NCBI GenBank assembly: GCA_963675665.1
Contig: OY776510.1
Span: forward strand, 2,624,001 to 2,688,000
From: Spirochaetia bacterium
GTDB lineage: Bacteria > Spirochaetota > Spirochaetia > UBA9216
Direction: 5' to 3'
Length of the DNA stretch: 64,000 nt
Position 1 is the stretch's first letter. Each line of letters starts with the position of its first letter. The position numbers and the translations under genes were made by a program. The notes below the pieces were generated by a model. It was not told the origin of the DNA. It saw only the letters and a list, made by a program, of their open reading frames with translations, and did no database searches. Shown piece after piece: positions 6,098 to 37,896 of the stretch.

Positions 6098-6231
6098 GGC
6101 CACGGATTGCCCGGGCAAGGCAGGCGGGTAACACGGACTGCGTTAATCCATATAGTCTGACTTAAACTATCAGCACCGAAGCCGCAGGCGTAGGTATGTG
6201 CATAGCGAAGCAATGCAGGCGGTTAACGGAT
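6098..6231 (+). repeat. CACGGA-family intergenic repeat, copy A (filled)
   Basis: 68-bp core 6131-6198 differs from 32337-32404 at one position. Confidence 0.9.
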
Positions 6232-21715: not shown

Positions 21716-21784
21716 TCACTGTCCCGGAGTATATTGTACAATACAGGAATGCGAATGTGTCGGAATAAATACCGTTCTTAATCA

Positions 21785-21892
21785 TCCGTGATCATACCTA
21801 CGCCTACGGCTTCGGTGCTGCTAGTTTAAGTCAGACTATATGGTTTAACGCAGTCCGTGTGACCACATATCTTTTCCCGATATATCCGTGGT
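21785..21892 (-). repeat. CACGGA-family intergenic repeat, copy B (filled, inverted)
   Basis: Reverse complement of 21793-21860 differs from 32337-32404 at two positions. Confidence 0.9.
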
Positions 21893-27998: not shown

Positions 27999-28505
27999 AT
28001 GCTCATTATTTTTACCAATGGTTTTATACCTGTAATACCGGTTCTGATATGGAATGCAGTATTTACAAAGAAATTGCCTGAAGAATTCGGTCCCGAATCT
28101 TTTGATAGGGGTATTCCCGGGCCGCTTTTGATATCTGAGAATATCCTGAGATTACTAGTGTTCTTCCTTCCTCTGTGCACAAGGATTAATATCATCAGCA
28201 GTATCGGGCAATTGGGGTTAATAATATTTCTTTTCGGTATTGCATGTTATTTCGGTTCATGGATAATGCTGATTAGATTTCCGGGCGCAAGATGGTCCAA
28301 ATCGCTTTTCGGTTTTACGGCGCCGGCATATACGCCCTTAATCTGGCTGGTCGGCTTAAGCCTCCTGATTGACTCATATTACTTCAGATTTTCGTATGCA
28401 TTCTGGCATTATGCCATACTAAGCTGTGCTTTTATCGGTGTCCATTTAACACATACGATCCTGGCCTTCAGTAAGAAGCGACGTAGCCACAAATACAGGC
28501 TGTAG
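27999..28505 (+). CDS. Hypothetical membrane protein
   Basis: About 5 hydrophobic segments. Confidence 0.65.
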   Translation: MLIIFTNGFIPVIPVLIWNAVFTKKLPEEFGPESFDRGIPGPLLISENILRLLVFFLPLCTRINIISSIGQLGLIIFLFGIACYFGSWIMLIRFPGARWSKSLFGFTAPAYTPLIWLVGLSLLIDSYYFRFSYAFWHYAILSCAFIGVHLTHTILAFSKKRRSHKYRL

Positions 28506-28808
28506 AGATACCTGGTCAAACGGAAGTAGAGCGGTGCGGATGTTCCTGTCATTTGCTCGACATTCTACAGGGATAAGAGTTGCCTTCTGTCTATTACATT
28601 AAACAATAACGAAGGAGTTTTCATGAGATTACTGGATATTGAGTATCAGTTTCAAACCATAATCTGTTTTTGCTCTTTGTCTTCTATCCGTGGTTTTCAT
28701 ATGGAAAATTTCATTTTTCTGCTTTGTCCCCTCAGCAATCCTTGATTTTATTTCTTTTTCCGAATCGCTTCCTGTTTTCAAATTGTTAAAAATATCTATA
28801 ATACTGAT

Positions 28809-29987
28809 ATGGATAATATTAATTCTGAAGAAAATAATAATGAATTTGCTGAACTTTTAAACCGGAGTTTTACTGAGACGGAATCATTGACGCCGGGACA
28901 ACAGATTGAAACCGACATTGTTTCAATAGCCGGAGATACTGTCTTTCTGGAGCTTAACGGAAAGACAGAGGGGGTACTTGACCGGGCCGAGCTTGCAGAT
29001 AAGGATGGAAACATTCAGGTAGAGGTCGGAGACAGGATAAAGGTATTCTTCCTTTATGCAAAAAGCGGCGAGATGCATTTCACAACAAGGATAAGCGGTG
29101 ACAAGGCCGGTGAGGCCGGTAACGCGGTGCTTCAAACGGCGTATGAAAGCGCTATTCCCGTTGAGGGCTTTGTTGAAAAGGAGATCAAGGGCGGTTTTGA
29201 TATCAGGATAGGAGACGTGCGCGCTTTCTGTCCCTGGTCGCAGATGGGTTTGAAGCGTGTAGAAAACGCTGCAGAATGGATTGGAAAAAACCTCACCTTT
29301 AAAATCACCGAATTCAGCGAAAACGGGCGTAATATCCTCGTTTCAAACAGGGCCGTTTTGGAAGAGGAACACAATAAAAAGATCGATGAGCTGAAAAAGA
29401 CTCTTCGTGAAGATATGGTTGTCAAAGGTACTGTAAAGGAGATCCGGGATTTCGGCGCTTTTGTTGATATAGACGGAATTCAGGCCCTTTTGCCGGTTTC
29501 CGAGATAAGCCGGGAGCGGGTAGAGGATATTAACTCTGTACTGAAGGTCGGCAGCGGGATTGAGGCTTCCATTCTGTCAATTGACTGGAAAAGGGAGAGG
29601 ATAAGCCTCAGCATGAAAGCTTTGCTTGCAGACCCCTGGGATGAAATTGAAGCCAAATACAGCAAGGGCTCAAAATATACTGGAACTGTTGCGAGGATTA
29701 CCAGTTTCGGGGCGTTTGTTACCCTTGAACCCGGCCTCGACGGTCTTGTTCATATTTCTGAACTCAGGGGAGATTCCAGCGACAGTAATCCTGCCGATAA
29801 ATTAAAGCCCGGGCAGAGTATCACTGTGCTTATAAAGGACATTGATAAGGGAAAAAAGAGATTATCACTTAAGCCTGCTTCAACAATTCAGGAGGATGAG
29901 ACGGTAAAAAAATATATGGAACCGGAAGTTGACTCCGATACCTACAACCCCTTCGCTGCGCTTTTAAAGGACAGAAAGAAGAAGTAA
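28809..29987 (+). CDS. rpsA: 30S ribosomal protein S1-like, four S1 domains
   Basis: S1 repeats: RAFCPWSQ, DFGAFVDIDG..LLPVSEIS, SFGAFVTLEPGLDGLVHISEL. Confidence 0.85.
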   Translation: MDNINSEENNNEFAELLNRSFTETESLTPGQQIETDIVSIAGDTVFLELNGKTEGVLDRAELADKDGNIQVEVGDRIKVFFLYAKSGEMHFTTRISGDKAGEAGNAVLQTAYESAIPVEGFVEKEIKGGFDIRIGDVRAFCPWSQMGLKRVENAAEWIGKNLTFKITEFSENGRNILVSNRAVLEEEHNKKIDELKKTLREDMVVKGTVKEIRDFGAFVDIDGIQALLPVSEISRERVEDINSVLKVGSGIEASILSIDWKRERISLSMKALLADPWDEIEAKYSKGSKYTGTVARITSFGAFVTLEPGLDGLVHISELRGDSSDSNPADKLKPGQSITVLIKDIDKGKKRLSLKPASTIQEDETVKKYMEPEVDSDTYNPFAALLKDRKKK

Positions 29988-30002
29988 TTTACCGAGGGTA
30001 GT

Positions 30003-30557
30003 ATGAACGTAAAGGAAGCAATAGAATCACGAAGGGCATATCGGGCCCTTGAAACCGCACCTGTCGACAGTGAGACTGTCGAAGAACTCGGAAAAGCCGC
30101 GCAGCTGGCTCCTTCCTGCTTCAACAAGCAGCCGTGGAGGTTTGTGTTCATCTCCGGCTCGCAAAGGCTGGAAGAGTTCCATTCTGTGCTGTCGGAACAG
30201 AACAGCTGGGCTAAAAATGCCCCTCTGATAATTGCCGTGATCACTGAACCGTCAATGGACTGCAGGCTGAAGGACGGGCGGGAATACAGCTTTTTCGATA
30301 CCGGAATTGCATGCGGCTTTATAATGCTGAGAGCAACGGAACTCGGCCTTGTGGCCCATCCCATGGCTGGATACAATCAGGCCGCAGCCAAAGCTGTTCT
30401 GGGCATTCCGGAAGAGATGACTTTAATCAATCTCATCGCAGTGGGCGTCCATGCGGAGAATTACAAAAAACTGCTTGAGGGCGACAGTCTGAAAGTGGAA
30501 GCCGAACGCCCGGTGCGGAAAGATCTGTCCGAGTTAATCAGGGTCGACAGTTATTGA
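30003..30557 (+). CDS. Nitroreductase family protein
   Basis: SRRAYR, LAPSCFNKQPWRF and DTGIA..IMLRATELGL motifs. Confidence 0.92.
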   Translation: MNVKEAIESRRAYRALETAPVDSETVEELGKAAQLAPSCFNKQPWRFVFISGSQRLEEFHSVLSEQNSWAKNAPLIIAVITEPSMDCRLKDGREYSFFDTGIACGFIMLRATELGLVAHPMAGYNQAAAKAVLGIPEEMTLINLIAVGVHAENYKKLLEGDSLKVEAERPVRKDLSELIRVDSY

Positions 30558-30624
30558 GCGCGTGCCCCGGACATTGACATCCGGATACGGCATGATATTA
30601 TTATATCTCCTGATGGAGGCAATT

Positions 30625-32286
30625 ATGAAAAAAACCTGCCGGTTATTAATTCTTGTCCTGGTATTGCTGCTTTGTTCAAGCATCCTTTTTGCCGAAGAGG
30701 CATCCGGCGGCGTCCCGGCTTCGTTCTGCTTCGATTTTTACCGGGCCGTCAGCTCTTCAGAAGAAAATATTCTATTTTCCCCGCTTAGTGTATCCATGGT
30801 GTTTTCAATGGTGCACGCAGGAACAGCCGGCAATACCGCGCAGCAGATCGCCCGGACCTTCGGTTTTAAACCTGACAGCAGTGAACAGGCGGAATACTAC
30901 AAGGGGATAATCGATTCCATCAGGCAGATAAACAGCGGAGACACGTCCCTTCTGCTTTCCAATTCATTGTGGCCGCAAAAAGGGGAAATTAATCCGGAAT
31001 ATACCAGGTTGATTGAAAATGTCTATCACGGGAGAATTTTCCCTGTTGACTACCGCAGCAATGCGCCTGCCGTAACTGAAGCAATTAATAAATATGTAAG
31101 AGAATCTACGGCGGGGAATATTAAACGGCTTCTAAAATACGATCTTGATTCCGAAACGGTATTCACCCTGCTTAACGTAATCTACTTCAAAGACAGCTGG
31201 TTATACCGGTTCAACGAATCCTCGAACATGGTTCTGGAATTTCATATCGATGAAGATCATTCGGTTGAGACAATTTTCATGCATCAGGAATCGCCGTTCA
31301 ACTATTATGAAGATGAGTTTTTCCAGGCGGTGGAGCTTCCATATAATACCGAACGGATCTCGATGCTGATCATTCTTCCGCGAGGCGGGGAAGACTTGCA
31401 GCGGATAGAGCAGGGCCTGTCGTTCGAACAGCTCGAAGGTGTGCTCGGCAAGAAGTGGAGTGAACCGGTTAGTCTTTACCTGCCCCGTTTTGAGCTTGAA
31501 TCAGATCTGGATTTGAAACTGATTCTCTCTTCAATGGGAATAACCGATGCTTTCAATCTTGCGAAGGCTGATTTCTCGAATATGAGCGGCGAGCGGCTCT
31601 GTATCGGCTTTGCAAAACATGCAGCACGAATAAAGGTAAATGAGGAAGGCTCGGAGGCGGCCGCAGCCACTGTTGCAGGCGGGTGTTTTCCGGCCGGCAC
31701 TCTTGTGCTTACCGCCGGAGGTCCTGTTCCAATCGAAGAGATTGAGCCGGGAACACCGGTGCGCAGCTTCAATTTCAAAAAAGACGTTTGGGAAGAAGCA
31801 GAGGTAACAGCCCTGCATCGCTTCGACAATAACGATGCCGGGGTAGAGCTGAGCATTGAGGGCAGCTTTATAAGAGCAACGAGTAACCATCCCTTCTATG
31901 TCCTTGAAGGAGAAGACCTGCAAACACGGAGATATCCGGCTGATATTTCTGATCCGGTTGATGACGCGGGATATGGCGGCAGATGGGTTGAAGCCGGAGA
32001 GCTGCGCCCGGGCGATCTAATCAAGTGTTTCGGTGTCGGTTCTGCTGTAGTCGACAGGGTAAAAAATATAACCCTGCGCGAACCGGTATACAACCTGGCG
32101 GTAGATGGACACCATAATTTTACAGTCGGAAGCTGCGGAGCTCTTGTTCATAATAAGGATGCCCAGGAAGAATCTCCCGTGATGTTTTATGCGAACCGTC
32201 CCTTTATTTTTATTATAAGGGATAACCTGACCGGAGAGATTTATTTTATGGGAAGGCTGAGTAAGCCCGGTCAGGTGAGTAAGTAA
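30625..32286 (+). CDS. Secreted serpin with intein-like Hint domain inserted in the reactive centre loop
   Basis: GGAGG RBS and signal peptide. Serpin motifs NILFSPLS, IN.YV..ST.G.I, LNVIYFKDSW, ELPY, LPRFEL, hinge VNEEGSEAAAAT and FYANRPFIFII...IYFMGR. A Hint insert lies between the hinge and strand s1C. Confidence 0.93.
   Translation: MKKTCRLLILVLVLLLCSSILFAEEASGGVPASFCFDFYRAVSSSEENILFSPLSVSMVFSMVHAGTAGNTAQQIARTFGFKPDSSEQAEYYKGIIDSIRQINSGDTSLLLSNSLWPQKGEINPEYTRLIENVYHGRIFPVDYRSNAPAVTEAINKYVRESTAGNIKRLLKYDLDSETVFTLLNVIYFKDSWLYRFNESSNMVLEFHIDEDHSVETIFMHQESPFNYYEDEFFQAVELPYNTERISMLIILPRGGEDLQRIEQGLSFEQLEGVLGKKWSEPVSLYLPRFELESDLDLKLILSSMGITDAFNLAKADFSNMSGERLCIGFAKHAARIKVNEEGSEAAAATVAGGCFPAGTLVLTAGGPVPIEEIEPGTPVRSFNFKKDVWEEAEVTALHRFDNNDAGVELSIEGSFIRATSNHPFYVLEGEDLQTRRYPADISDPVDDAGYGGRWVEAGELRPGDLIKCFGVGSAVVDRVKNITLREPVYNLAVDGHHNFTVGSCGALVHNKDAQEESPVMFYANRPFIFIIRDNLTGEIYFMGRLSKPGQVSK
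31684..32154 (+). other. Intein-like Hint domain (BIL-A/pretoxin-Hint type), 157 aa, no endonuclease
   Basis: Block A CFPAGTLVLT..G..PIEEI..G..V; block B ATSNHPFYV (TxxH); WVEAGELRPGD; block F VYNLAVDGHHNFTV; terminal LVHN followed by Lys. Confidence 0.93.
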
Positions 32287-32303
32287 AAGCAGGAAGAATA
32301 TTC

Positions 32304-32413
32304 GGCCACGGATATATCGGGCGGTACAGGCGGGTCACACGGACTGCGTTAATCCATATAGTCTGACTTAAACTATCAGCACCGAAGCCGTAGGCGTAGG
32401 TATGAACACTGAT
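32304..32413 (+). repeat. CACGGA-family intergenic repeat, copy C (filled)
   Basis: Core 32337-32404 is shared with copies A and B. Confidence 0.9.
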
Positions 32414-32639
32414 TGAAGAAGTGATTGAGTTAAATCCTGTTTTAAAACAAGAAGAACTTTTCTAAATTGCTGTTAATCTTTTCTGTGTGAAATTTTGGAG
32501 TTAGCTATTCGGGTGGAATATCCTGTCTGCCTTCATTATTTTTAATTTATAATCCATATTATTGCAACAATATTAACGTACCGGGTTATAATAATGATAG
32601 AGATTCCTGCTATATATTTTCATTAATCATGGTTGTCTG

Positions 32640-32837
32640 CATATCATATATGAAGACGGGGCAGAGAAACTGATTGTCGGAACAGGTCAATACGGTTTTG
32701 TTAAATTGTCCGGGGCCGCTGCAGCTTATCTGGAATCAAGGGGTTGTGCCTGCCTGCTTTATCCGACGCCGCGAGCTGTAAAAGAGTGGAATGCGGAGCA
32801 GGGAAAAGTAATGGGGTTGTTTCATATCACCTGCTGA
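32640..32837 (+). pseudogene. 5'-truncated Mth938-like (DUF498) protein
   Basis: EKLIVGTGQYG..KLS..A..YL..RG....PTPRAVKEWN....KVMGLFHITC*; in-frame stop at 32598-32600 and no ATG between that stop and the motif. Confidence 0.7.
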
Positions 32838-32885
32838 GCCAGCCCGGTTTAACGGGCGGGAAAAGTCTTACCCCCTTTGCTGATT

Positions 32886-32936
32886 ATCCGTGTCAATCCG
32901 TGTTGCCATTCATATGTGCCGCCTATATCCGTGGCC
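32886..32936 (-). repeat. CACGGA-family repeat, copy D (empty, inverted)
   Basis: Reverse complement reads GGCCACGGATATA...ACACGGATTGACACGGAT. Confidence 0.8.
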
Positions 32937-33009
32937 AAACGTCTTTAATGTCCACATTTTCAGGTCAGCGCCAGGCTCAGAGAATATAACGGTAAATATA
33001 TTTTTCCAC

Positions 33010-36000
33010 CTAAATCCTGATGCTGCCGCTTTTCCGTCCGGAGACTGCATATTTCATATATGGAATTATTACATCGTTCTTTAATGATTCGGTCCCGTCA
33101 TAGGTTATGGTAAGTACCGGAACACCGGTCAGCTCTTCAATGTCCCTGCTCATGGCTTCGGTGACGAGCGAAGGACAGCAGAATGCGGGGTTTGTCTGAA
33201 TAAAAAGTGAGACATCAGGGTGTTCTTTTATAATGCGGAAGATTTTAAGGATGTTTTCATTGCTTTCGCCTTCCTGCTCCACTCTGATATTAAAATTGGC
33301 AAGCTGGGTCTCAATATCTGGGTTCTTTGACTTTATCGGATCACCTATGTATTTGCTCAGATACCGGTAGTAGCGGCCCTCAAGCAGTTCCATGGCTGCA
33401 AGAAGGGATTTGCAGATGACAACATCGGAAATTTTCAACTCCCTGAACCATCTTTTAAAAACCGCACTGCTGATAATTTTAGCGTATTCGTTATACGGTG
33501 TCGTCAGAACCTCGCCGCCTGCATCTTCTATAATCTTAATCAGGTTCTGATTCATAACATCATTATCCCTGACATACAGATCTCCGAATAGCGCAACTTT
33601 CGGGCGGTCTGTTTTATTGTACTCTATCGCATCAAGCCCGGCTATAATTGATTTCACCGCTTCAGTAAAGTGCATTTCCCCGAGGAACGCTTTTTCCAGA
33701 ATTATTCTTGATTCCGCAATAACCCTGTCTGTTTCTCCCTTATGTACCTCATAGGGTCTTATCATGCAGCCGATTTTTTTCAGGTTGCCTCCGAACATAT
33801 AAGCAAAGTAGGTTTTGATTGATACAATGGGACTGATTTCCACCATGGTCAGCACGCCGGTATAAACACCTGCCGTCTGCAGTCCGTTACCTTCCTTTTC
33901 CATGAGGCTTTTAATGTAGGACGGATACATCGGTATGTTGCAGGCCCATGCTGATTTTATCATCCACAGGACGGTGTCCGCGGGGTTGAGCTTATATTTT
34001 TTTATGTATTGTGCATACTCGTGCGCTATTGTGTTTACAGGAATGCACTGGCCCGTGTTCATTCTCATACTTTCCGCTATCATCTTCGGAGTTTCTTCCA
34101 GCACCCTGGCATCTATTCCCGCGTAGCGCAGATTTGCCGCGACAAGGGGAAGAACAAAGGTGTCCCAGTTCGGCAAAAGAACTGTCTTTCCTTCAAGCGA
34201 TTTGGAGATTTGCGGCAGAACTGGAAGTTTGTTATCCTGCGCAGGAGTCCTTGCTGATTTAAAATGATTTCTGAAAGACCTGATCCCGGCTTCGATTCTT
34301 GTTTCGTATCCGATATTTGAATCGTGATCGTCGGTCTGAAGGATTAAATAAGGTTTTTCATGCCTGTCCATTATCCTCCTGAAATACTCCAGTGTAAACG
34401 AGTCGGGCGAACACTTGAATGATGTCACAAATACAGGGTAAAGCCCCTCGGTTTTCGCGCAATAATCTGCGGCGGCTAGGATCTCCGACGGATAAGCCCA
34501 GTGAAACTGGTCAAGCAGGCCGTCGACGGCTTCTGAAGGTTCGGCTGCCGGAATCATATCGGTAAAATACGTTTCAATACCGAGGGCGGCAAAGAAACCG
34601 GGAATATTCTTGTTCATCGATTCAAGCAGCACTGTATACGGCCTTCCTGTCAGAAGCACCTGTATATCGCCGTTTTCAGAAGAATGATAAACCTTTCTCA
34701 ATGCCTGTTTTGCTTTTTTGAAATTTTCAACTGCATCTTCAAATGCCGCGGATATTTCCGGAAAACTGAACTTCCGTTGAACATGCTCATTTACCGCTTT
34801 CATGAGTTCGAATTTTATTTTAAGCGGATTGGACCGGTAATTGATAAGAGGCATCAAACTCGTTATTTTACTGCCCCTCAGTTTCATTGATGAGGTAAGG
34901 GTTGAACTGAACTGGGTATAGTAGCAGAATTTCCGAAGCCGTGATGTATCTTTTTCATCCTTCCTGTCGCCGATGTGTATGGGCAGAAATACTACATCCG
35001 ATTTTTCGGCAACCGAGGCCGTATGACCGTAGAAAGCCGTCATCGGTGCACAGAATTCGGCGCCGGCAAGCTTTTTGCCCCGGGCTATTACGTCGGGGGT
35101 CTCTTCGCTTGTGACGGTCCTTATTCCGAGATTGTTAAAGAATTTCCGCCAGAGAAGCGTTTCGTCGAAAATCCTGAGTCCCGAGGGAATCCCGACAACA
35201 GGCAGTTCCGTCTTTTCGGGTTGCGCGGGCATCAGCGGGGCAAGTGCGGATTTTCGGATCTGCAGCAGTGAAGGCGTCTGCTGCTTTTTTACAAACTTTT
35301 TGGTGTTATAGTCCCTGCCGCACAGAAATCCGTAGGCAACCTCTTCATTTTTAACATCTGCAATTCTGATTCTGCAGTGGTTTCCGCACAGTCCGCATAT
35401 TTCGGTCCGGACTTCTATATTTTCCCGCCAGATATCGAAGCCCCTGAAGCCGGAAATGCCGCTCTTCTCTTCAGCGGCAGTGACCGCAGCTCCAAGGGCC
35501 CCGGTTAAATGGCAGTATTTTGAAACAAGCACGGGTTTGCCGAGTTTTTGCTCAAAGGCTGCAACAAGCGTCCGGTTCTTTGCGGTTGCTCCCTGAAAAT
35601 ATACCCGGTTTCCGATATTGCCTTCAGCGGCCACCTTCTGCAGATAGTTTTCCCTGACTGAAAACAGTACCGCTGCAAGAATCTCACCGACTTCATAACC
35701 TTTATTCAGGTAATGATTAATATCCCTTTCCATGAAAACAGTGCACCTGTCGCTGGTCAGGGGGGCCCTTGCTCCTTCTGCAAGATCTGCATATTCGGAA
35801 AGTGCCACGCCGAGTTTTGATGCCTGTTCTTCAATAAAGCTGCCGGTTCCGGCTGCGCATACCGTATTCATCTGTGAAAAGGTCACGACGCCCTTTCTCA
35901 GGGTTGTAAATTTAGAATCCTGCCCGCCTATCTCAATAATTGTATCGATATCAGGATCAAGCAATACTGCAGCACGCGCATGAGCTGAAATCTCATCCAG

Positions 36001-37212
36001 AACTGTATCGGCGCCGATCAGGTTGCCGATAAACTTCCGCCCGGACCCGGTGCTGCCCGCAGCAGAGACGGCAATGCTCAATTTCTCCCGTTCGATATAA
36101 GCGCTGCAGGCCTTGAATATAGCTTGAACGGCGGCGACAGGTCTGCCTGCAGTTCTGGTGTAAAAACCCGCTACAGGATTAAACGATGCGTCAATAATTA
36201 TAGCCTTTGTTGAAGTTGAACCTATATCAATTCCCATGGATACTTCAACGGGTATTTCCCCGGAAAGGTCCTGATAAATATCAACCTCTACATCGCTTTT
36301 ATCTGAAAAGTGAAAATTATAATGCTGAAGGCCGTTAAAATCGGGATAATCCGAGAGTTTCAATTCAAGCGGAGAATAAAAATATTCTTTCTCCGCGGCA
36401 TCCGCATCCTGTACCAGTTCAAAACGGTTTTCAGTTTCCTGCGGCAGGTTATCCTGAAGAAGCAGCCTGACCGCGCCGGCGGCCCCGGCAAGGTGGGAGT
36501 ACCTGTGAATCAGGATCTCGTGTCCCAGAATTTCTTCCAGATGCCCGACAACCGCCCTGTTGGCGGCTACGCCTCCGGTGAACACCATGGGGCTGTAATT
36601 CACTTTATCATCGAACAATGAGTCTGCAATATTATTGCCCAGGCCGGCGCAAAGCCCGTCGCAGATCTCTTCGATGGAATAGCCTTCCTGCTGAGAGTGG
36701 ATGATATCGGTCTTTGCGAAAACAGCGCATCTCGATGCTATTTTTGGAACAGCGCCGGTATTGAACAGGGCTTTCCTGCTCAGTTCGGCGCTGTCTGCAA
36801 GGTTTAGTCTTCCGGCCTGCTGATCCAGGAAACCGCCGGTGCCCGCGGCGCAGGAAGTGTTGGATTTCATATTTGTAAAACGGCTGCGGTCATCGAATTC
36901 GATCAATGAGAATCTTTCCCCTCCTACATTGAGGATTGATCTGATATTGCCGTAAAAAAAATTGACGCCCTGAATAATTGATACGATCGGATCAAAACTG
37001 ATCGCGCCGGTGATGATGTCGGGGGTAGAAGCCGTCCGGGCGATTCCGGTCGCATCCGAATAGTCAATTTCCAGAAGCATTTCCCTGATCGCCTTTGAGG
37101 GGTTGCCGTTATGATATCCGTAGCGGTGGTCCGTTACTATTCCTTCAGCAGTCATGACGATGAGAGATACGGTCACGGAGCCTGAATCTATGCCGATAAA
37201 TTTATCTTTCAT
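33010..37212 (-). CDS. CoA-substrate-specific enzyme activase (2-hydroxyacyl-CoA dehydratase activator; two BadF/BcrA ATPase domains + DUF2229-like)
   Basis: GIDSGS and GIDIGSTSTK, two CAAGTG motifs, RCAVFAKTD, C..CGNHC, CSPD. Confidence 0.92.
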   Translation of the reverse strand: MKDKFIGIDSGSVTVSLIVMTAEGIVTDHRYGYHNGNPSKAIREMLLEIDYSDATGIARTASTPDIITGAISFDPIVSIIQGVNFFYGNIRSILNVGGERFSLIEFDDRSRFTNMKSNTSCAAGTGGFLDQQAGRLNLADSAELSRKALFNTGAVPKIASRCAVFAKTDIIHSQQEGYSIEEICDGLCAGLGNNIADSLFDDKVNYSPMVFTGGVAANRAVVGHLEEILGHEILIHRYSHLAGAAGAVRLLLQDNLPQETENRFELVQDADAAEKEYFYSPLELKLSDYPDFNGLQHYNFHFSDKSDVEVDIYQDLSGEIPVEVSMGIDIGSTSTKAIIIDASFNPVAGFYTRTAGRPVAAVQAIFKACSAYIEREKLSIAVSAAGSTGSGRKFIGNLIGADTVLDEISAHARAAVLLDPDIDTIIEIGGQDSKFTTLRKGVVTFSQMNTVCAAGTGSFIEEQASKLGVALSEYADLAEGARAPLTSDRCTVFMERDINHYLNKGYEVGEILAAVLFSVRENYLQKVAAEGNIGNRVYFQGATAKNRTLVAAFEQKLGKPVLVSKYCHLTGALGAAVTAAEEKSGISGFRGFDIWRENIEVRTEICGLCGNHCRIRIADVKNEEVAYGFLCGRDYNTKKFVKKQQTPSLLQIRKSALAPLMPAQPEKTELPVVGIPSGLRIFDETLLWRKFFNNLGIRTVTSEETPDVIARGKKLAGAEFCAPMTAFYGHTASVAEKSDVVFLPIHIGDRKDEKDTSRLRKFCYYTQFSSTLTSSMKLRGSKITSLMPLINYRSNPLKIKFELMKAVNEHVQRKFSFPEISAAFEDAVENFKKAKQALRKVYHSSENGDIQVLLTGRPYTVLLESMNKNIPGFFAALGIETYFTDMIPAAEPSEAVDGLLDQFHWAYPSEILAAADYCAKTEGLYPVFVTSFKCSPDSFTLEYFRRIMDRHEKPYLILQTDDHDSNIGYETRIEAGIRSFRNHFKSARTPAQDNKLPVLPQISKSLEGKTVLLPNWDTFVLPLVAANLRYAGIDARVLEETPKMIAESMRMNTGQCIPVNTIAHEYAQYIKKYKLNPADTVLWMIKSAWACNIPMYPSYIKSLMEKEGNGLQTAGVYTGVLTMVEISPIVSIKTYFAYMFGGNLKKIGCMIRPYEVHKGETDRVIAESRIILEKAFLGEMHFTEAVKSIIAGLDAIEYNKTDRPKVALFGDLYVRDNDVMNQNLIKIIEDAGGEVLTTPYNEYAKIISSAVFKRWFRELKISDVVICKSLLAAMELLEGRYYRYLSKYIGDPIKSKNPDIETQLANFNIRVEQEGESNENILKIFRIIKEHPDVSLFIQTNPAFCCPSLVTEAMSRDIEELTGVPVLTITYDGTESLKNDVIIPYMKYAVSGRKSGSIRI

Positions 37213-37371: not shown

Positions 37372-37896
37372 TTATGACCGGCCGAGAACATATGCTATAT
37401 CCGATACTGCCTGCGCCGGATTGTTGTTGTTTGTAAAATCCTTGTCGAACAGATTGGTCACAAACCCTTCGGAGGCTTTACTGAATATCATGTCGTGTCC
37501 TACGAATAATCCCATTGAAATGTTCAATTCGGTTTTTTTTAAATTCAGATAATCTGCCTGTCCGGCAGGATTACATATTATCTGATTGCTGCTTCCGCCG
37601 AGAATATCTTTTTTAGGTATGCGGCCGTATTTGCAGTCGACTGTGAACACGGAAAAATACCTTGAAAAATATTCCTTCAGAATCACTGCTTCCCTTGAAA
37701 AGGTAATGCAGTGAGCAATTCCGATCCGGCTGAACCCGGCGCCCCCGGCAAAATTCATGATTTCTTCAATACGGTTTGAAGTCATGCTGGTACAATCGTT
37801 GTTAACCTTCATTATTTTTCTAAAAGCGTCGTTGTATAGTTTATTCATCATATGAAAAATAGGGAAAAACCCATTCAGAGTCAATACTTTAAACAC
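37372..37896 (-). CDS. DUF1847-like metal-binding protein
   Basis: RIEEI..FA....RIGIAHC, CK.G, CNPAGQA.YLN and GL.VGHD motifs; true start probably further downstream. Confidence 0.75.
   Translation of the reverse strand: MFKVLTLNGFFPIFHMMNKLYNDAFRKIMKVNNDCTSMTSNRIEEIMNFAGGAGFSRIGIAHCITFSREAVILKEYFSRYFSVFTVDCKYGRIPKKDILGGSSNQIICNPAGQADYLNLKKTELNISMGLFVGHDMIFSKASEGFVTNLFDKDFTNNNNPAQAVSDIAYVLGRS

Follow-up and report, generated by a model that had tools for sequence, protein, structure and literature searches.

The gene at 30625..32286 on the forward strand of the window (the whole 64,000-nt stretch of contig OY776510.1 from a Spirochaetia bacterium that was analysed here) encodes a serpin whose reactive centre loop (RCL) is interrupted by a complete 157-aa Hint domain. 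This protein (P0001) probably cuts or re-joins its own trigger loop without a protease. Serpins are textbook metastable proteins, the energy of which is released by a protease cut in one loop, and cleavage within the RCL triggers loop insertion. The initial annotation had read the open reading frame (ORF) 30625-32286 as a serpin with a Hint domain in its RCL; translation and Pfam analysis confirm this, and the coordinates given for the Hint domain (31684-32154, 157 aa) are exact. The RCL is interrupted directly after P4 (Gly353; P positions are numbered, as we assume, as in antitrypsin), the Hint domain extends from Cys354 to His-Asn510, and the two junctions read ...VNEEGSEAAAATVAGG / CFPAGT...GALVHN / KDAQEESPVMFYANRPF. 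In the C-terminal part of P0001 the Hint domain is followed by Lys511 and then by KDAQEESPVMFYANRPFIFIIRD... The coding sequence and its domains are laid out as follows:

30625..32286 (+), serpin-Hint coding sequence, 553 aa plus stop (ORF list, translation, Pfam)
30625..30693 (+), signal-peptide-like N-terminus, aa 1-23, ...ILFA-EE (inspection and homologue alignment)
30694..31683 (+), serpin body to P4, i.e. the N-extein, aa 24-353 (Pfam Serpin, residues 32-350, profile positions 4-329 of 370)
31642..31683 (+), hinge and proximal RCL EEGSEAAAATVAGG, P17-P4, aa 340-353 (alignment of 28 family members)
31684..32154 (+), Hint domain, type A BIL-like (bacterial intein-like), 157 aa, aa 354-510 (Pfam, NCBIfam, match to 2lwy, alignment)
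31684-31686 (+), Hint Cys1 (Cys354)
31879-31890 (+), Hint block B, T-S-N-H (T419 to H422)
32149-32154 (+), Hint terminal His-Asn (H509-N510)
32155..32283 (+), C-extein, aa 511-553, with Lys511 at +1 (second Pfam Serpin stretch)
within 32155..32283 (+), distal RCL KDAQEESPVMFYA, then strands s1C, s4B and s5B (NRPFIFIIRD...FMGRL)

Profile scans of the kind proposed in the initial annotation identified the Serpin family (PF00079) in two stretches flanking the insert (8.2e-96, 321.9 bits, cut-off 27), and a genome search with the same profile again gave two stretches, the first over the serpin body (profile positions 4-329) and the second over the C-terminal strands (333-370). The best solved serpin match by sequence is conserpin (E 1.7e-53). 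PT-HINT (PF07591) is the sole Pfam Hint model above its cut-off for P0001, with 29.0 bits for the whole protein and 33.1 bits for the Hint domain alone (cut-off 27.7), and Intein_splicing stays below its own (28.1 and 33.9 bits, respectively; cut-off 35.8). Among the NCBIfam models, intein_Cterm is above the cut-off (19.9 bits against 15.6) and intein_Nterm is below it (21 bits against 24.5); no NCBIfam family is dedicated to the serpin-Hint architecture.

The serpin part has a hinge of the inhibitory type. Inhibitory serpins have a hinge with Gly at P15, Ser or Thr at P14, and an Ala-rich stretch at P12-P9, and the query hinge, E-E-G-S-E-A-A-A-A-T, is of this small-residue type. In the alignment of 28 family members the residues E340, G342, A345 and A347 are invariant, and P17-P8 is the best-conserved stretch of all (mean pairwise identity 0.83 vs 0.46 for the serpin body), in agreement with the earlier proposal that the hinge is competent for insertion. 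The precursor has 14 residues (P17-P4) before the Hint domain and lacks the continuous 17-residue P17-P1 bait loop of inhibitory serpins, which would be present only if the two halves were ligated. When the Hint domain is removed, the distance from the P17 Glu to the Asn of NRPF is 27 residues in the query, as had been counted before, and 23-30 residues in the family. The value for the query lies within the range of 25-33 observed in 145 insert-free serpins; the antitrypsin loop we take to be 25 by the same measure.

Among solved structures the Hint domain matches the BIL domain 2lwy best (E 9.4e-13); the alignment consists of two stretches, which take in both halves of the domain, and the two sequences both end in LVHN. 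In the serpins that share this type of domain, Cys1 is present in 28/28, the block-B Thr in 28/28, the block-B His in 27/28 and the terminal His-Asn in 28/28 sequences, with Lys at position +1 in 25 of them, Gly in two and Glu in one. Two features of class 1 inteins are absent from the query, in which the +1 residue is Lys511 and the Intein_splicing score is below the cut-off. We therefore classify the Hint domain, from its sequence, as type A BIL-like and not as a class 1 intein: the "intein-like Hint" of the initial annotation stands as far as the intact catalytic set is concerned, and is refined to type A BIL by the 2lwy match and the Lys at +1. Formation of the branched intermediate requires Cys, Ser or Thr at +1, and canonical intein splicing is therefore excluded. 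Passages of PMC4031507, which cites Amitai 2003, Dassa 2004 and Aranko 2013 for BIL domains, describe type A BILs as ending in His-Asn and as able to splice when the freed amine attacks the thioester, "although cleavage products dominate", and BILs are likewise said in a passage of PMC7664689 to "produce predominantly cleaved products".

Among the 22 full-length members, pairwise identity in the serpin body correlates with that in the Hint domain (r 0.913, reached in 0/2000 permutations), and the mean identity is 0.51 for the Hint domain and 0.46 for the serpin body. Since the two parts have diverged together and the Hint domain is no less conserved than the body, it is best read as a long-term resident of the serpin that is under selection. 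The conservation of the catalytic set together with that of the hinge indicates that Hint catalysis and the capacity for loop insertion have both been maintained.

We have seen 53 distinct serpin-Hint sequences in databases, some of them truncated and all annotated only as serpins. A search with the whole protein returned 509 proteins at E <=1e-5 among 7999 candidates, and Serpin and PT-HINT occur together in at least seven of them, including the query (among the best 120 of the 509 matches). The search with residues 325-553 found 112 proteins, 35 of which (the query included) have both Serpin and PT-HINT, and a profile search of a 50%-identity representative library added 15 further serpin-Hint proteins. 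The architecture, which the initial annotation did not know from characterised serpins, was not found in the papers that we searched, but in the databases the query is one of about 50 such sequences.

In all 46 proteins with a complete Hint domain, this domain starts 13-19 residues past P17, i.e. at most a few residues before or after the canonical scissile bond, and two types can be distinguished. The 157-aa type (32 complete proteins, Hint length 156-162 aa) starts 13 (10 proteins), 14 (17) or 15 (5) residues after P17 and contains an insert of 23 residues in which GRWVEA is invariant. The 138-aa type (14 complete proteins, Hint length 137-139 aa) starts 16 (8 proteins), 17 (5) or 19 (1) residues after P17, with Ala (3), Ile (3), Asp (2), Phe (2), Thr (2), Val (1) or Ser (1) at +1. 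With regard to these offset counts, P0139, P0141 and P0148 were left out of the later tally, and two of the three were counted from the earlier one. In the five 138-aa-type proteins with offset 17, Cys1 lies exactly at P1' and the N-terminal Hint junction is the canonical scissile bond itself.

A tree of the Hint domains separates the two types with a support of 100 in the SH-aLRT (Shimodaira-Hasegawa-like approximate likelihood-ratio test), and in the serpin trees the proteins of the 138-aa type form a clade of their own (100), as do the core members of the 157-aa type (97-98). The approximately unbiased (AU) test did not reject a single clade of all Hint-bearing serpins (log-likelihood 26 lower, p-AU 0.217) or of all 157-aa-type serpins (p-AU 0.593); the latter result gave no support to a scattering of the 157-aa type over several places, as seen in a quick 124-row tree. 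In the first serpin tree P0029 (a truncated Hint-serpin) and P0193 (a non-serpin) were counted among the insert-free sequences, as were P0253 and P0296 (a fragment and a decayed Hint-serpin) in the later trees, including the 124-row one. Because the Hint tree splits the two types and their insertion offsets differ, two independent recruitments appear to be the simpler reading, of which the serpin tree alone is no proof.

The 157-aa domain is also a portable cassette. The profile built from the serpin Hint domains matches the same domain in 21 non-serpin proteins of our set with 157-242 bits; against the family profile the query Hint scores 180 bits and the other 27 serpin Hints 177-258. In the non-serpin hosts, which are unrelated secreted proteins, the cassette splits a DUF2330 domain, and it occurs also in vWA, LVIVD/beta-propeller, DUF4349 and RHS proteins, again with flanks of the form GG-C...HN-KG-x-x-E (Gly at -1 in 17/21, Lys at +1 in 15/21). 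Of the 28 serpins with the 157-aa type, 23 have Gly or Gly-Gly at the end of the N-extein, Lys-Gly or Lys-Ala follows the Hint domain, and altogether 48 of the 49 Hints of this type, from serpin and non-serpin hosts, have a Lys within four residues after the domain. Removal of the Hint domain would leave Ala, Gly or Ser as P1 in 22/30 proteins of the 157-aa type, as against 69/298 insert-free loops, and a counted P1 of Thr, Gly, Ala or Ser is found in 150/298 of the latter. Scars of the type GGK or GKG are present in none of the 298 insert-free loops, and runs of GGG in two. As the flanks are common to the 21 non-serpin hosts, the residues at the loop tip seem to belong to the cassette, and look like its linker rather than like protease bait. 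Some non-serpin hosts (P0138, P0171, P0175, P0169, P0177, P0181 and P0185) have two or three tandem N-terminal Hints before vWA or Tim44-like domains. No second Hint copy was found in the source genome.

We have also modelled P0001 with AlphaFold2 from a 28-row alignment (mean predicted local distance difference test score, pLDDT, 81.7). Both folds are present, with a helix at residues 2-22, low confidence at 19-28, and C-extein strands at 520-522, 527-533 and 539-545. Residues 342-352 form a confident strand beside s5A, i.e. they are inserted, and the junction residues 354-359 and 510-519 have pLDDT below 50, with stretched junctions. A Foldseek comparison with serpin structures gave template modelling scores (TM-scores) of 0.78-0.92, normalised by target length, and the matches with the lowest root-mean-square deviation (rmsd) are cleaved serpins (1.5-2.2 Å over 330-343 alignment columns). 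A Hint-free relative modelled as a control (28 rows) has a strand only at 349-354, and its loop is of low confidence; latent, cleaved and native serpins are intermingled in its Foldseek ranking, and its lowest-rmsd matches are native forms. Given these mixed matches, the model was dropped as a judge of the conformation of the precursor, and at most it suggests that a protein of this sequence could adopt the relaxed form.

On the basis of the architecture and of the conserved residues we consider autocatalytic processing of the RCL, of one kind or another, very likely. What is said below of the chemical steps, of their order and of the relative shares of cleavage and ligation is our proposal. 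The outcome that we favour as the dominant one, tentatively and with less than even confidence, is excision of the Hint domain without re-ligation, by which the serpin would fire without a protease. After export and folding, an N-to-S acyl shift at Cys354 would convert the Gly353-Cys354 bond into a thioester, and cyclisation of Asn510 would cut the Asn510-Lys511 bond. Without a +1 nucleophile, no branched intermediate would hold the halves of the loop together; the thioester would be hydrolysed, or either junction would break, and the 17-kDa Hint domain would be excised with no re-ligation. The proximal loop (P15 to ~P5), thus freed, would insert into beta-sheet A, in a stressed-to-relaxed transition without any protease. 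This would release the Hint domain and leave the serpin relaxed and non-inhibitory, i.e. the protein would act as a single-use, self-triggered switch or timer, and a minority of the molecules may end up ligated. We place cleavage slightly ahead of ligation because cleavage dominates in the BILs described so far, because after Asn cyclisation the two halves would be untied and subject to a strong force driving them apart, and because the loop tip looks like a linker and not like bait.

The strongest alternative, which we regard as possible though unlikely, is a zymogen-like inhibitor. In this case a thioester would form at Gly353, Asn510 would cyclise, and the alpha-amine of Lys511 would attack the thioester, so that type A BIL splicing leaves a continuous RCL (...TVAGG-KDAQEE...) and an inhibitor that is active after export and folding. 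Type A BILs can splice without a +1 nucleophile, according to the passage on them in PMC4031507, the chemistry of both junctions is kept in 28/28 members, and the hinge conserved next to them is of the inhibitory type. Several observations count for splicing and at the same time weigh against excision as the main outcome: the strict retention of the C-terminal His-Asn (28/28) fits ligation at least equally well, the Hint-deleted loop is of normal length (23-30 vs 25-33 residues), the flanks, which are flexible and conserved (Gly at -1, Lys-Gly at +1/+2), could suit an aminolysis-type ligation, and the cassette splits a DUF2330 domain in an intein-like manner, so that re-joining would restore the host. 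Small residues at the counted P1 position are moreover frequent in insert-free bacterial serpins as well (150/298). Excision is further weakened by the fact that the processing itself is deduced from sequence, that the structural model does not decide the matter, and that the notion of loop insertion outrunning ligation is likewise inferred. We know of no function for a relaxed bacterial serpin; long-term selection would be easier to explain if an active inhibitor were produced, the only function that obviously accounts for it. Against splicing, cleavage dominates in the BILs described in the passages of PMC4031507 and PMC7664689, each mis-cleavage would be irreversible in a serpin, and after Asn cyclisation loop insertion would presumably compete with ligation. 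The would-be bait is a Gly-rich linker shared with the non-serpin hosts, and the GGK/GKG scar that splicing would leave is found in 0/298 insert-free loops.

It is also conceivable, but in our opinion rather improbable, that the Hint domain acts as a built-in surrogate protease. The thioester at Cys1 would then be the counterpart of the acyl-enzyme formed between a serpin and a protease, and the serpin would fire after Asn cyclisation with the Hint domain as covalent cargo, or the acyl group would pass to an outside nucleophile or to the +1 Lys (as an isopeptide). In the five 138-aa-type relatives with Cys1 at P1' the thioester would sit on the P1 carbonyl. If true, this would be a new use of the serpin mechanism, perhaps reached independently with two Hint types, and it would provide protease-independent, single-use molecular springs such as timers, covalent traps or anchoring devices.

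Less probable is acyl transfer proper, in which an outside nucleophile (a cell-envelope amine or a residue of a target protein) resolves the thioester of the N-terminal fragment, just as cholesterol does with the Hedgehog thioester, or the epsilon-amine of Lys511 does so and yields an isopeptide-bridged loop. Hedgehog-type transfer is established for the Hint superfamily according to a passage of PMC7664689 and serves as a precedent, and the Gly or Gly-Gly end of the N-extein (23/28) and the Lys within four residues past the Hint domain (48/49) would be in keeping with such a reaction. However, no acceptor is known, no conserved partner gene is present in the eight loci compared or within 10 kb of the gene in the window, the 138-aa type has no conserved Lys, and the His-Asn is kept even though Hedgehog-type domains do not need it.

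We find it still harder to believe that the Hint domain is an inert insertion, i.e. a bulky non-processing module (e.g. for binding) in a serpin that serves as a non-inhibitory scaffold. The scores of Intein_splicing and intein_Nterm are indeed below their cut-offs, and the query is a divergent member, with a Hint score of 180 bits in a family that ranges from 177 to 258. Nevertheless, the query has retained all residues for both cleavages, and so have 27-28 of 28 relatives despite a Hint identity of 0.51, which would not be expected unless catalysis were maintained.

That two genes were fused by an error of assembly or annotation is practically out of the question, as there is one continuous frame in a one-contig genome, both junctions are spanned by contigs from three runs of two studies, and the same architecture recurs in the 53 database proteins. 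The source genome is a single contig of 5.15 Mb that holds one serpin and one Hint domain of this kind. In run X1, which may be the source sample, a contig of 6979 nt covers 31300-32366 with 0 differences; contigs of run X3 cross each Hint junction; and in run X4, from another study and ~97% identical, the contigs 31626-31944 and 31926-32372 bridge both. With independent contigs across them, the junctions can be taken as genuine, which settles the misassembly that the initial annotation had considered.

Analysis of the distribution of the serpin-Hint gene reveals that it is accessory and patchy, as judged from its presence and absence among 40 relatives of the source genome. In five same-genus genomes no serpin was found with the query, and the same-class genomes contain one serpin with a Hint domain and one clear Hint-free serpin. 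The same-genus genome G001 has the same Hint inside a DUF2330-ankyrin protein, a secreted protein of 764 aa (L006:1186-3480) with the junctions HRGG-CFPAGT...LVHN-KGGLE and a Hint domain 42% identical to that of the serpin. Among species-representative genomes, the full architecture occurs in six metagenome-assembled genomes (MAGs) of Spirochaetota and in one of Anaerolineales (L012-L018). A relative of the 138-aa type is present in a cultured planctomycete, where it is annotated merely as "serpin family protein"; its Cys1 lies one residue before P1'. The 138-aa-type (planctomycete-type) serpins P0100, P0164, P0170, P0172 and P0166 have long C-terminal extensions with dockerin-like repeats, and PF00404 is precomputed for P0100 and P0163; the extensions suggest attachment to a surface scaffold.

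The initial annotation had called for homologues with and without the insert at the same site. Serpins of both kinds were found, but the putative empty-site orthologue proved to be a deleted copy. This locus, L021, comes from another Spirochaetaceae MAG and is syntenic with L015. It was ruled out as a Hint-free orthologue, since three stretches are deleted from it in frame, and one of these lies within the Hint domain. In comparison with L015:5977-7683, the deletions in the serpin-Hint gene at L021:5881-7095 affect serpin helices, the middle of the Hint domain, and the Hint end together with serpin strands. It may be a decaying copy or a co-assembly artefact; the encoded protein is P0296 of the representative library.

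The serpin-Hint gene has no conserved neighbours across eight loci except in one syntenic pair, and in the window no protease gene lies within ~10 kb of it. It is surrounded by genes for an S1-domain protein, a nitroreductase, a BcrAD/BadFG-type activase fusion and an ABC sugar transporter. The fusion protein (33010-37212, reverse strand; 1400 aa) combines two BcrAD/BadFG-type ATPase modules with a DUF2229 CoA-enzyme-activase domain, and is followed by a DUF1847 gene at 37372-37896. Just downstream of the serpin gene, at 32304-32414 (+), there is an intergenic repeat of ~100 nt, with copies (85-90% identical) at ~6098-6198 (+) and 21784-21891 (-) and a further one elsewhere in the genome. Contigs of several runs end at this repeat, and the depth increases there. 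The repeat has no Rfam match and no covariation among three copies, and Rfam gave no match over the window region 28000-34000.

The start of the gene was assigned within a single open frame that the ORF list of the window gives as 30562..32286 (+), and that encodes the 553-aa protein when started at ATG 30625. Two signals precede this codon:

30574..30601 (+), promoter-like site TTGACA-16 nt-TATTAT with TG before the second hexamer (11/12; a consensus match only)
30615..30619 (+), ribosome-binding site GGAGG, 5 nt 5' of the ATG (read from the sequence)

As the promoter-like site lies inside the longer GTG frame and GGAGG is 5 nt 5' of the ATG, ATG 30625 is the likely start. The hydrophobic N-terminus MKKTCRLLILVLVLLLCSSILFA-EE aligns with the ...FAQ/FSQ sites of homologues (alignment A2). 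The earlier description of the protein as secreted is therefore retained as putative, on the strength of this signal-peptide-like start as seen by inspection and in the alignment.

No paper describing a Hint domain or intein within a serpin was found among the matches listed by full-text searches, which do not cover subscription journals and supplements; the remark of the initial annotation that the architecture is unfamiliar among characterised serpins thus agrees with what has been published in the literature searched. Two papers considered as possible prior descriptions, PMC4582956 and PMC8778642, place the serpin and the Hint or intein in separate proteins in the passages concerned. If cleavage prevails, P0001 would represent the first protease-independent trigger of the stressed-to-relaxed transition, and if splicing prevails, the first serpin made as a splice-activated zymogen. 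The biological roles of BILs are poorly understood, and a serpin host gives cleavage and ligation opposite and easily measured consequences, so that the long-open question of whether a BIL cuts or splices becomes directly testable. Protein engineers, too, might be interested in a portable cassette that brings flexible flanks of its own.

In comparison with known systems, P0001 is closest to the type A BILs (e.g. that of Clostridium thermocellum, PDB 2lwy), with which it shares a mini Hint fold without endonuclease, Cys1, block B T-x-x-H, the terminal His-Asn, the absence of a +1 nucleophile, and a secreted host. It differs from them in the host site, a serpin RCL in which a cut triggers a large conformational change, and in the 23-aa insert with the invariant GRWVEA and the conserved flanks (GG before, KG after). 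With class 1 inteins, including those used in conditional protein splicing, it has in common the Hint fold, Cys1, the terminal Asn, insertion in a host and a possible role as a switch; unlike them, it has Lys at +1, no homing endonuclease, a non-essential secreted host and a patchy distribution. PT-HINT (PF07591) of polymorphic toxins matches above the cut-off, whereas here there is no toxin module or Rhs context, and the domain lies inside a fold and not before a C-terminal toxin. Inhibitory bacterial serpins such as miropin from Tannerella forsythia (PDB 5ncs, 5ncu, 5ncw) and chloropin (8gxv), as well as the engineered conserpin, have the same serpin fold, inhibitory-type hinge and signal-peptide-like start, but their loop is a continuous bait that is cut by the target protease, whereas in P0001 a 157-aa Hint domain replaces the loop tip. 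In the spontaneous latency of PAI-1 a serpin inserts its own loop without a protease, by a built-in timer and with the chain unbroken; self-insertion without a protease is thus an idea common to both, whereas here a covalent self-cut would release the loop. The serpin and the BIL Hint domain each belong to a known kind, and it is their combination, with its consequences, that is new.

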